Assembly: GCA_020137815.1 (NCBI GenBank) | Contig: CM035356.1 | Span: forward strand, 4,464,001 to 4,528,000 | DNA: 64,000 bases | Reading direction: 5' to 3' | Origin: Hormiphora californensis | Lineage: Eukaryota > Animalia > Ctenophora | In this document: piece by piece, positions 3,293 through 63,400 of the stretch | Layout: each line of letters begins with the position of its first letter | How positions within the stretch are numbered: the first letter of the stretch is position 1 | Made by a program: the position numbers and the translations under genes | Notes under the pieces: generated by a model | Told to the model about the DNA's origin: nothing | Databases searched by the model: none | What the model saw: only the letters and a program-made list of their open reading frames with translations

Positions 3293-3915
3293 CACCCTCT
3301 CCCTCAGACACTGCGAATAGTGGAGGAGACAAGAGACATGAACATGAAACACCCCCTTCTAACACCCTCTCTCTCAGACACTGCGAATAGTGGAGGAGAC
3401 AAGAGACATGAACATGAAACACCCCCTTCTAACACCCTCTCTCTCAGACACTGCGAATAGTGGAGGAGACAAGAGACATGAACATGAAACACCCCCTTCT
3501 AACACCCTCTCCCTCAGACACTGCGAATAGTGGAGGAGACAAGAGACATGAACATGAAACACCCCCTTCTAACACCCTCTCCCTCAGACACTGCGAATAG
3601 TGGAGGAGACGAGAGACATGAACATGAAACACCCCCTTCTAACACCCTCTCCCTCAGACACTGCGAATAGTGGAGGAGACAAGAGACATGAACATGAAAC
3701 ACCCCCTTCTAACACCCTCTCCCTCAGACACTGCGAATAGTGGAGGAGACGAGAGACATGAACATGAAACACCCCCTTCTAACACCCTCTCCCTCAGACA
3801 CTGCGAATAGTGGAGGAGACGAGAGACATGAACATGAAACACCCCCTTCTAACACCCTCTCCCTCAGACACTGCGAATAGTGGAGGAGACAAGAGACATG
3901 AACATGAAACACCCC
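3293..3915 (+). repeat. 70-bp tandem array (9 copies) of branch point + 3' splice site + first 16 codons of a USP24 exon
   Basis: Unit ...ttctaacaccctctccctcag|ACACTGCGAATAGTGGAGGAGACAAGAGACATGAACATGAAACACCCC; AG at 3307, 3377 ... 3867. Only the last copy continues into the exon. Confidence 0.95.
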
Positions 3916-60400: not shown

Positions 60401-63400
60401 AGGCAGGATGACCTGGGGAAGGGGGTGAGTTAGGAGGCAGGATGACCTGGGGAAGGGGGTGAGTTAGGGGTCAGGATAACCTAGGGAAGGGGGTGAGTTA
60501 GGAGGCAGGATGACCTAGGGAAGGGAGGTGAGTTAGGAGGCAGGATGACCTAGGGAAGGGGGTGAGTTAGGAGGCAGGATAACCTAGGGAAGGGGGTGAG
60601 TTAGGGGTCAGGATAACCTAGGGAAGGGGGGTGAGTTAGGAGGCAGGATGACCTGGGGAAGGGGGTGAGTTAGGGGTCAGGATAACCTAGGGAAGGGGGT
60701 GAGTTAGGAGGCAGGATAACCTAGGGAAGGGGGTGAGTTAGGAGGCAGGATGACCTGGGGAAGGGGGGTGAGTTAGGAGGCAGGATAACCTAGGGAAGGG
60801 AGGTGAGTTAGGAGGCAGGATGACCTAGGGAAGGGGGTGAGTTAGGGGTCAGGATAACCTAGGGAAGGGGGTGAGTTAGGAGGCAGGATGACCTGGGGAA
60901 GGGGGTGAGTTAGGGGTCAGGATAACCTAAGGAAGTGGGGTGAGTTAGGAGGCAGGATGACCTGGGGAAGGGGGGTGAGTTAGGGGTCAGGATAACCTGG
61001 GGAAGGGGGGTGAGTTACGAGGCAGGATGACCTGGGGAAGGGGGTGAGTTAGGAGGCAGGATGACCTGGGGAAGGGGGTGAGTTAGGAGGCAGGATGACC
61101 TGGGGAAGGGGGGTGAGTTAGGGGTCAGGATAACCTGGGGAAGGGGGTGAGTTAGGAGGCAGGATGACCTGGGGAAGGGGGTGAGTTAGGAGGCAGGATG
61201 ACCTAGGGAAGGGGGGTGAGTTAGGGGTCAGGATGACCTAGGGAAGGGGGGTGAGTTAGGAGGCAGGATGACCTGGGGAAGGGGGGTGAGTTAGGAGGCA
61301 GGATGACCTGGGGAAGGGGGTGAGTTAGGAGGCAGGATGACCTGGGGAAGGGGGTGAGTTAGGAGGCAGGATAACCTAGGGAAGGGGGTGAGTTAGGGGT
61401 CAGGATAACCTAGGGAAGGGGGGTGAGTTAGGAGGCAGGATGACCTGGGGAAGGGGGTGAGTTAGGGGTCAGGATAACCTAGGGAAGGGGGTGAGTTAGG
61501 AGGCAGGATAACCTAGGGAAGGGGGTGAGTTAGGAGGCAGGATGACCTGGGGAAGGGGGGTGAGTGAGGGCCTGTCACCTTATATCCCTTTGTCACCCCT
61601 GTCACCTTATCTCCAATTGTAACCCCTGTCACTTTGCCTCCCATTGTAACCCCTGTCACTTTGCCTCCCACTGTCTCCCATGTCACTGAACTATCACACT
61701 CACGGGAATTTGAAATGTTTGTAAAAAATTAAAGAATACGGATACAAATCATCCAAATATTAACAAAATATATTGTCATCTAACTGTTCTGTCCTTACAT
61801 TCCCACACTCCTAGACAAATACTCCTCTTCGTGAATAACCCGAATGGAGACAATCTCACTCCCGTTCCCTCTCATCGATATTATCTCTCTGTCAGACCCT
61901 TTCTCTATCTCTCAGCAACCGACCGGACCAAATAAACAACCAATCCGAGCTCATTATTCAGGTCACGTGACTGGTTATCAGCCAATCGATTGTTAAAACA
62001 TGTAATGAACTGGCCTGTGTGTCTGTCTGTGTGTCTGTCTGTGATCTGTTTGTATGTCTGTGATCTGTTTGTATGTCTGTCATATTTTATGAACACGGAC
62101 CTGTGTAGAGGTCGGAAGAAAATTCTTGAATCTCCAATCTCCATGTTTCACTCTGATATTACAAGCCGAACTCAACCAATTTCAAAGTATGACTCGTACC
62201 GGAACAGATTAATCTTCCAGATTTTATCTGCAGGTTCGTCTTAGTTTGAGGGTTGCCATAGCGTTTTTCTGTTTTCGCTCAATTTATCAGCACCATGATT
62301 TTAACATTCCGCCCGAAGGGCGGGCGGTCCATCTCTTTATGCTGCTGCAGGCTGCTGCAGTTGTAATTTGTGCGTCTGTTTGTCTGTGCGTCTGTTTGTC
62401 TGCAGCTGCTGCTCTGGAGTTACTTTCAAGACTAGCAAGAATTCTAACACATTTTATACTTCACTGCGTGTTAAATGAAAATTAACTTCGTTTGTGATTT
62501 TATCCAAAATATTGAAGTAAGATTGCGATTTTGAAGCACATGTACACTTTTGTTCGATTAAGTTACTTTTAGGCATTTTGAATACAGTTCTGAAGAAGTA
62601 TTTTTAGGAATGAAGTAATTACTGAAGTATATGCAAGTGAAGTACTTTTTAGGTGCTTTTGTTGCTATTATGATGAAGTATTTTTTTGAGTGAAGTAATT
62701 ACTGAAGTATCTACCACGAAAAATTATGCTTCAGTCGATATCAGTCTAGCAACGGAAGTATTTTCAAAACTGTAATATAAGTGAAGTAACCAACAGAGTA
62801 AGGCATCAATTTTGATGCCTGACATCAATTTGAGACAAATTTGATGATAGCTGATAATTGGAAGTCCTGCAGAATTCCTTCAGGATTCTTGTGGTATAAG
62901 TCATAAATCGTTTGACGTACTATTTGGGCTTCTATGACAATTTTAGTTCCGAAAAACCCTCTAAAAAACTTTAAAGTCGATTTTCTCGAAACTTAAAAAA
63001 TGCAAATACTTCATTCTAAAAAAAAGGGGCAGAACATACCTAGATACTTGTAATCCGGTCTAAAGTCATGACCCCACTGACTGACACAACATACCTAGAT
63101 ACTTGTAATCCGGTCTAAAGTCATGACCCCACTGACTGACACAATGGACCTCATCAATGACTACCCTCGCTAAGAGACCATTTTCATAACTCTTCTCCAT
63201 CGCGTTCTGAAAGCGCTTAGCTTTCGCCATCTTCTCTGGAGTCACGTAGACTAGTTTCAGCTCCTCGGAACCTGGAGAGAGGAATGGAGAGAGAGAGAGA
63301 GAGAGAGAGAGAGAGAGAGAGAGAGAGAGAGAGAGAGAGAGAGAGAGAGAGAGAGAGAGAGAGAGAGAGATATGCTAACTAACCAATATCTCCCCACATT

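Follow-up and report, generated by a model that had tools for sequence, protein, structure and literature searches.

Genes and repeats of the window

The window, the whole 64,000-nucleotide stretch of Hormiphora californensis DNA that was analysed, contains two large genes. The 3' part of a USP24-like ubiquitin protease gene is located at 3868..16105 (+) and was recognised by blastp to Branchiostoma USP24 (29-35% identity). A RECQL (RecQ1-like) helicase gene is located at 42470..63819 (-) and shares 52% identity over 394 aa, with one gap, with the protein P0145. Both models were built by hand from homolog tblastn and from the sequence itself. The USP24 model starts after the 5' exons and has 15 exons (3868-15467) encoding 1,733 aa; the RECQL model, with the 5' end of the gene outside it, has 12 exons encoding 536 aa. 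Both are stop-free and colinear with their homologs, and all 25 complete introns of the two genes are bounded by GT and AG. The last coding stretch of USP24 lies at about 15560-16105, after a frame shift within 15468-15600 (+). Homolog spacing at this join is compatible with a short intron and equally with a small assembly indel.

Six smaller genes were also modelled, three of them stop-free. The other three (G2, a SAM-like gene and G8) still contain stops, and the junction lists of the small models are therefore provisional. UBE2J1, a single exon at 29064-30062, had Bolinopsis microptera as its top named match, with 355 bits compared to 286 for the next named protein. In a tree of 24 rows, chosen by hand from the matches and including one named ctenophore, it grouped with Bolinopsis and eleven other proteins with a clade support of 100/100, in keeping with a ctenophore host. 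A single-exon LIPT2-like lipoyl/octanoyl-transferase gene (31440-32073, -) is apparently nested, on the same strand, within an EF-hand gene, in an intron of 1,727 nt; according to the accessible text of the Hormiphora genome paper, genes nested in introns are common in this animal. Two long open reading frames without a Pfam match, 27650-28453 and 26821-27675 (-), abut in different frames at 27650-27680 and are possibly one gene with a frameshift or a sequence error.

Tandem repeats make up 26% of the window and the transposon mask, which was based on self-BLAST, reverse transcriptase (RT) hits and inverted ends and has some approximate edges, covers 35%. The accessible text of the genome paper gives 13% tandem repeats and a high indel heterozygosity and does not mention junctions.

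Tandem arrays at the junctions of USP24 and RECQL

Tandem copies of the genes' own splice junctions had been predicted at eight places, and all eight arrays were recovered there by TRF, each with a unit spanning an exon-intron junction of the modelled USP24 or RECQL gene. The prediction of at least eight introns was correct for the number of arrays; the introns are seven, because the arrays at 4027-4417 and 4620-4864 are both within the USP24 intron 4054-4820. Acceptor copies precede the real site, and donor copies follow it. The units are about 35-95 nt long, every spare copy carries only 12-50 nt of exon, and the arrays span 2 to 60 copies when the functional copy is included.

USP24 has three acceptor arrays and one donor array (+). 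The first acceptor array (3293..3915) has 9 copies of a 70-nt unit (about 22 nt of intron and 48 nt of exon), with the functional AG at 3866-3867. The donor array (4027..4417) has 11 copies of a 35-nt unit (27 nt of exon and 8 nt of intron), with the functional GT at 4054. The acceptor array at 4620..4864, which is polymorphic between haplotypes, has 3 copies with units of 95 and 93 nt and a functional AG ending at 4820; its copies consist of 44 nt of exon followed by poly-C, a branch-point-like sequence and a pyrimidine tract. The longest acceptor array (9609..12077) has 59-60 copies of a 41-nt unit (29 nt of intron and 12 nt of exon), with the functional AG ending at 12068, and accounts for 2,460 of the 2,580 nt of its intron.

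The four RECQL arrays (-) are all donor arrays. Two copies of 40 nt are present at 45705..45783 (functional GT 45747), and 15 copies of 43 nt (26 nt of exon and 17 nt of intron) at 47239..47890 (functional GT 47863). Four copies of a unit of about 49 nt are found at 48074..50300 (functional GT 50282); three of them (48074-48209) are displaced beyond a 2.05-kb insertion at about 48210-50262, whose inverted ends are degenerate and within which a LINE fragment encoding RT is nested. For the largest array (52245..63144), over 30 copies had been predicted at 52249-63145. A donor array is present there, but the count is 30 and the array is discontinuous: its cores, 28-29 of them with an intact donor, form three blocks at 63033-63144 (2 cores, including the functional GT 63094), 58159-59624 (21 cores) and 52245-52773 (7 cores).

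The proposal that only the copy adjoining the exon body gives an open reading frame was borne out. An open frame was given by none of 121 pseudo-sites and by none of four further sites, namely two array copies and two decayed acceptors. The two pseudo-sites that were in frame (+93 and +108 nt) were both interrupted by stops. For the first USP24 exon this test assumes phase 0, because the upstream exon is outside the model. An AG or GT is kept in all 121 scored copies, which are thus potential cryptic sites, and most acceptor copies have also preserved a CTAAC branch-like motif and a pyrimidine tract. Invariant columns form the majority in the arrays (21/31 to 61/63), so recent homogenisation suffices to explain the retention of AG and GT and no selection is needed. 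Selection for these dinucleotides was considered and set aside, since it cannot be told from homogenisation in the array columns.

Two decayed single copies, absent from the original prediction, were found in RECQL (-). One is a copy of the exon-9 acceptor and exon start (45572..45591, pseudo-site 45589) and the other of the exon-11 acceptor and exon start (43467..43483, pseudo-site 43479); the score of each was reached in 0 of 200 shuffles. This shuffle test covered 85 junctions with 200 shuffles and a 600-nt probe window, with which the displaced RECQL exon-5 copies were missed and the 60-copy array was scored at 6/200 shuffles. A weak 10-nt match at the RECQL exon-11 donor (2/200) was excluded from the count.

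Related sequences occur elsewhere in the window. Immediately ahead of the start codons of UBE2J1 (30063-30140, -) and of a MARVEL-domain gene (36408-36500, -) there are candidate acceptor duplicates, which were left uncounted and may be acceptors of 5'-UTR introns or of trans-splicing. A 30/31-nt duplication at 22373-22435 (-), in a provisional gene model, may straddle an acceptor. Intronic arrays of CTAAC and C-rich tracts, a duplicated branch-point and pyrimidine-tract-like sequence, are located just 5' of acceptors and end before the exon at 6070-6490, 7866-7952, 28438-28666 and 43383-43436.

The largest RECQL array has been interrupted twice. A non-LTR retrotransposon with endonuclease and RT (52774..58158, -) was inserted within one donor unit, splitting it, and a non-autonomous DNA transposon of about 3.4 kb (59626..63032) lies within the array with an exact 32-bp terminal inverted repeat and a 4-bp target-site duplication. 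The functional copy and its nearest neighbour carry a synonymous T, and the 26 distal copies carry C. This pattern is consistent with fresh duplication or conversion after the transposon had isolated the exon, and with repeated turnover at one site.

One array of the eight, the three-copy acceptor array (region 4420-5410), was compared with public short-read contigs, none of which spans the whole region, and two samples contained it. The first pseudo-acceptor is matched with zero differences by contigs of run X2 (sample S1) and run X5 (sample S2), and one X5 contig covers the second exon copy, the poly-C and the real acceptor. In a haplotype of run X6, 4612-4776 is replaced by 38 letters with a different, shorter acceptor copy, indicating haplotype variation in length and copy number at the one array examined. 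A 42-nt duplication seen in the same run is confined to the intron, clear of any junction. Over 4420-5410, X6 contains two clearly divergent haplotypes, with, e.g., 9 differences in one 119-base piece, several indels and an apparent insertion near 5134, as would be expected under high heterozygosity.

Origin of the arrays and choice of splice site

The class had been thought undescribed at this density, but it is already published: junction-spanning minisatellites termed "mirages" are reported at four amphioxus loci in the accessible parts of PMC3087553 and PMC3902484. According to these parts, mirages occur in Adh3, the globins BflGb6 and BflGb9, troponin C and PGBD5, vary in copy number and evolve in concert, and reportedly leave splicing undisturbed. 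The eight USP24 and RECQL arrays are, from their sequence, mirages, with a junction-spanning unit, minisatellite size and retained AG or GT. In both systems the tandem units lie across the exon-intron boundary, at 5' and at 3' boundaries, and many copies keep AG or GT. The units here (about 35-95 nt) are within the 10-160 bp of the amphioxus units. Haplotypes differ in copy number in amphioxus, and one is replaced here at the three-copy array. The arrays described here differ in their ctenophore host, outside the chordates, in reaching 60 copies compared to 2-7 in those accessible parts, in being interleaved with transposons and in the occurrence of eight arrays in two genes. Normal splicing is supported by RT-PCR for the amphioxus mirages, whereas here it is deduced from the reading frames. 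Neither a genome-wide density figure for junction arrays nor any ctenophore report was found in the literature searched, with most subscription papers outside the search. The present arrays thus extend a little-studied repeat class to a ctenophore and offer natural cases of 2-60 near-identical competing splice sites in an early-branching animal with short introns. They also mislead gene prediction and read mapping.

Two human cases are comparable as far as the accessible text of the papers goes. In intron 7 of F7, the first unit of a 37-bp VNTR spans the exon-intron donor and gives 5-9 identical donors, of which only the most upstream is used; the pseudo-sites become functional once it is lost (PMC1557585). 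F7 is a single donor array in one gene, whereas acceptor arrays are found here too, and these require the last AG, contrary to what a simple first-AG scan predicts. In human segmental-duplication genes, minisatellite expansion at exon-intron boundaries lengthens introns (PMC2812944). Those repeats can create new introns or alternative transcripts, whereas neither a new intron nor a productive isoform is apparent in USP24 or RECQL. The Rogers model, in which introns are gained by tandem duplication of AG|GT (as cited in PMC3087553), is not supported, as the copies are all in or at existing introns; the USP24 and RECQL models require no extra intron between copies.

Introns in the window are short, with a median of 140 nt after arrays were collapsed and transposons removed, and a surviving genic duplication of 40-70 nt therefore straddles a junction in 29-48% of cases by geometry alone. 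In the null model used, each observed unit length was placed uniformly, and only non-coding or single-junction positions were allowed. Junction arrays were above the geometric expectation in all six settings (expected 2.9-4.1, P 0.003-0.020), with P values that are nominal and inflated because the window was picked for this feature. For the two genes, 8 of 10-14 events were at junctions compared to 3.5-4.1 expected (P 0.004-0.020), and for the whole window 8 of 15-24 compared to 2.9-3.5 (P 0.003-0.015). In these counts the events were classed by hand in a way that favours junction events: the transposon-displaced RECQL exon-5 copies were counted, and similarly displaced intronic duplicates would have been missed. 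Geometry covers about 40% of the cases, and the nominal 2- to 2.7-fold excess that remains is weak evidence, which leaves some junction bias possible. Short units (9-16 nt) straddled a junction in 0 of 10 cases (P = 0.61), which does not discriminate. Purely intronic and intergenic arrays are equally present in the window. Large minisatellites away from junctions are found at 18407-20128 (13-mer, 133 copies), at 41213-42179 (24-mer, 40 copies) and, within a transposon, at 60208-61569 (34-mer, 40 copies), a sign of general array expansion.

We consider it probable (roughly 70%) that the arrays are mirage-type minisatellites which originated in repeat-prone genes with short introns, by ordinary local tandem duplication, and persist since splicing uses only the copy with the full exon. 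The first duplication would have occurred by slippage or break repair, and the array would have grown by unequal exchange with homogenisation. Duplications wholly within exons would be removed by selection, and events that leave one complete junction on the exon would survive harmlessly, with the outer site probably chosen by an exon-definition-like rule. We infer the use of the outer site from the open reading frames. The suggestion in the original prediction that duplications straddling a junction are tolerated agrees with the intact frames, with the unproductive pseudo-sites and with the published mirages and the F7 VNTR, which splice normally. Its other suggestion, targeting by a splicing-coupled process such as R-loops, is not supported by the strand skew and G-run content of the arrays. 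R-loops favour a G-rich non-template strand; the sense-strand GC skew of the arrays is inconsistent, ranging from -0.83 to +0.53, i.e., from strongly C-rich through G-rich, and G-run or G-quadruplex-like content did not differ between the 8 array junctions and 44 others (p=0.24). Microhomology of 4 nt at the unit boundary was clear in one array only, at the RECQL exon-6 donor, and weak or absent in the others; an apparent one at the distal end of the largest RECQL array was discarded, being partly a transposon end.

Geometry and survival may nevertheless be incomplete as an explanation, because the junction arrays exceed expectation in every setting. The arrays also cluster, with 8 at the 52 junctions of the large genes and none at the 33 of the six smaller, partly provisional models (Fisher p=0.02), a pattern not expected from uniform duplication. 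A junction-biased origin or retention, owing to a lesion coupled to transcription or splicing (R-loops, polymerase pausing) or to a conserved exon copy that re-seeds the array, would account for the 8 events observed against 2.9-4.1 expected. The two decayed acceptor copies and the two candidate 5'-UTR acceptor duplicates point the same way, as do the second haplotype with its own acceptor copy at the same USP24 junction and the RECQL donor that was apparently re-duplicated after a transposon severed it from its array. Set against this are the inflated P values, the hand classing, the absence of copies from all 33 junctions of the other models, and the lack of a consistently G-rich sense strand or an excess of G-runs; we regard such a bias as unlikely. 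A bolder combination is doubtful though conceivable: junctions would attract duplications about twice as often as geometry predicts, and ctenophores would recognise splice sites across the exon even though their introns measure about 140 nt. The acceptor arrays are more telling for site choice: the USP24 donor 9489 would have to pass over a consensus acceptor 150 nt away (9639) and 57 more to reach the presumed acceptor 2.6 kb away, and the first pseudo-acceptor would close an intron of normal size. Duplicated sites with truncated exon flanks reportedly lose to the outer site, as found by Reed and Maniatis. If both parts were true, exon-definition-like splicing would exist at the base of animals, and the polymorphic arrays would be a natural test of splice-site choice. 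It is in this possible junction bias and in splice-site choice in a short-intron, early-branching animal that the interest of the arrays lies.

A function of the arrays, as decoy sites that tune USP24 and RECQL levels via unproductive splicing and decay or via stepwise removal, would agree with the AG or GT of all 121 scored copies and with the mostly kept CTAAC motif and pyrimidine tract. The column invariance alone yields this retention; in addition, the three-copy array is replaced in another haplotype and the largest donor array is interrupted by transposons, which makes such a function very improbable. Recursive splicing was examined and rejected: the acceptor arrays read AG|AC, AG|GA and AG|AC, none AG|GT, and stepwise removal has no handle because they regenerate no donor. 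That collapsed or stuttered reads gave false copies is the least probable of these explanations. Assemblies can miscount the copies of long arrays, and the read comparison covers one array of the eight, with short reads. An artefact is nevertheless unlikely because the copies have diverged (80-98% matched, with patterned variants) and because one array is cut precisely within its units by a LINE and by a transposon with inverted ends and a 4-base target duplication. The three-copy array is also found in contigs of two samples, and in five runs from two samples, one of which is possibly the source of the window, 70-80% of the words sampled from 2800-12700 are present.

Contribution to intron length

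The 25 introns comprise 26,143 nt, of which junction arrays make up 22.6%, transposons 55.1%, other tandem repeats 6.3% and the remainder 16.0%. Arrays account for 74% to 95% of three introns (USP24 introns 1 and 14 and RECQL intron 6). The 12,475-nt RECQL intron with the large donor array has 2,057 nt of junction copies and 10,299 nt of transposons. Junction arrays are therefore a real mechanism of intron growth that is secondary to transposons in this window, and to call them a major route of intron expansion was an overstatement, although they dominate in three introns.

Near-perfect fold-back (palindromic) elements of 0.17-2.2 kb, with 93-99% identity between arms, are found at 1161-2797, 16129-18303, 32843-33181, 38490-39469, 43825-45295, 45892-46482 and 51462-51632, two of them in RECQL introns. 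Palindromes centred on ACCATGGT recur in short repeats at 48100-48210, 28110-28158 and 21514-21605. They resemble the RFX X-box, to which exact matches were found at 21558 and 27007 only.
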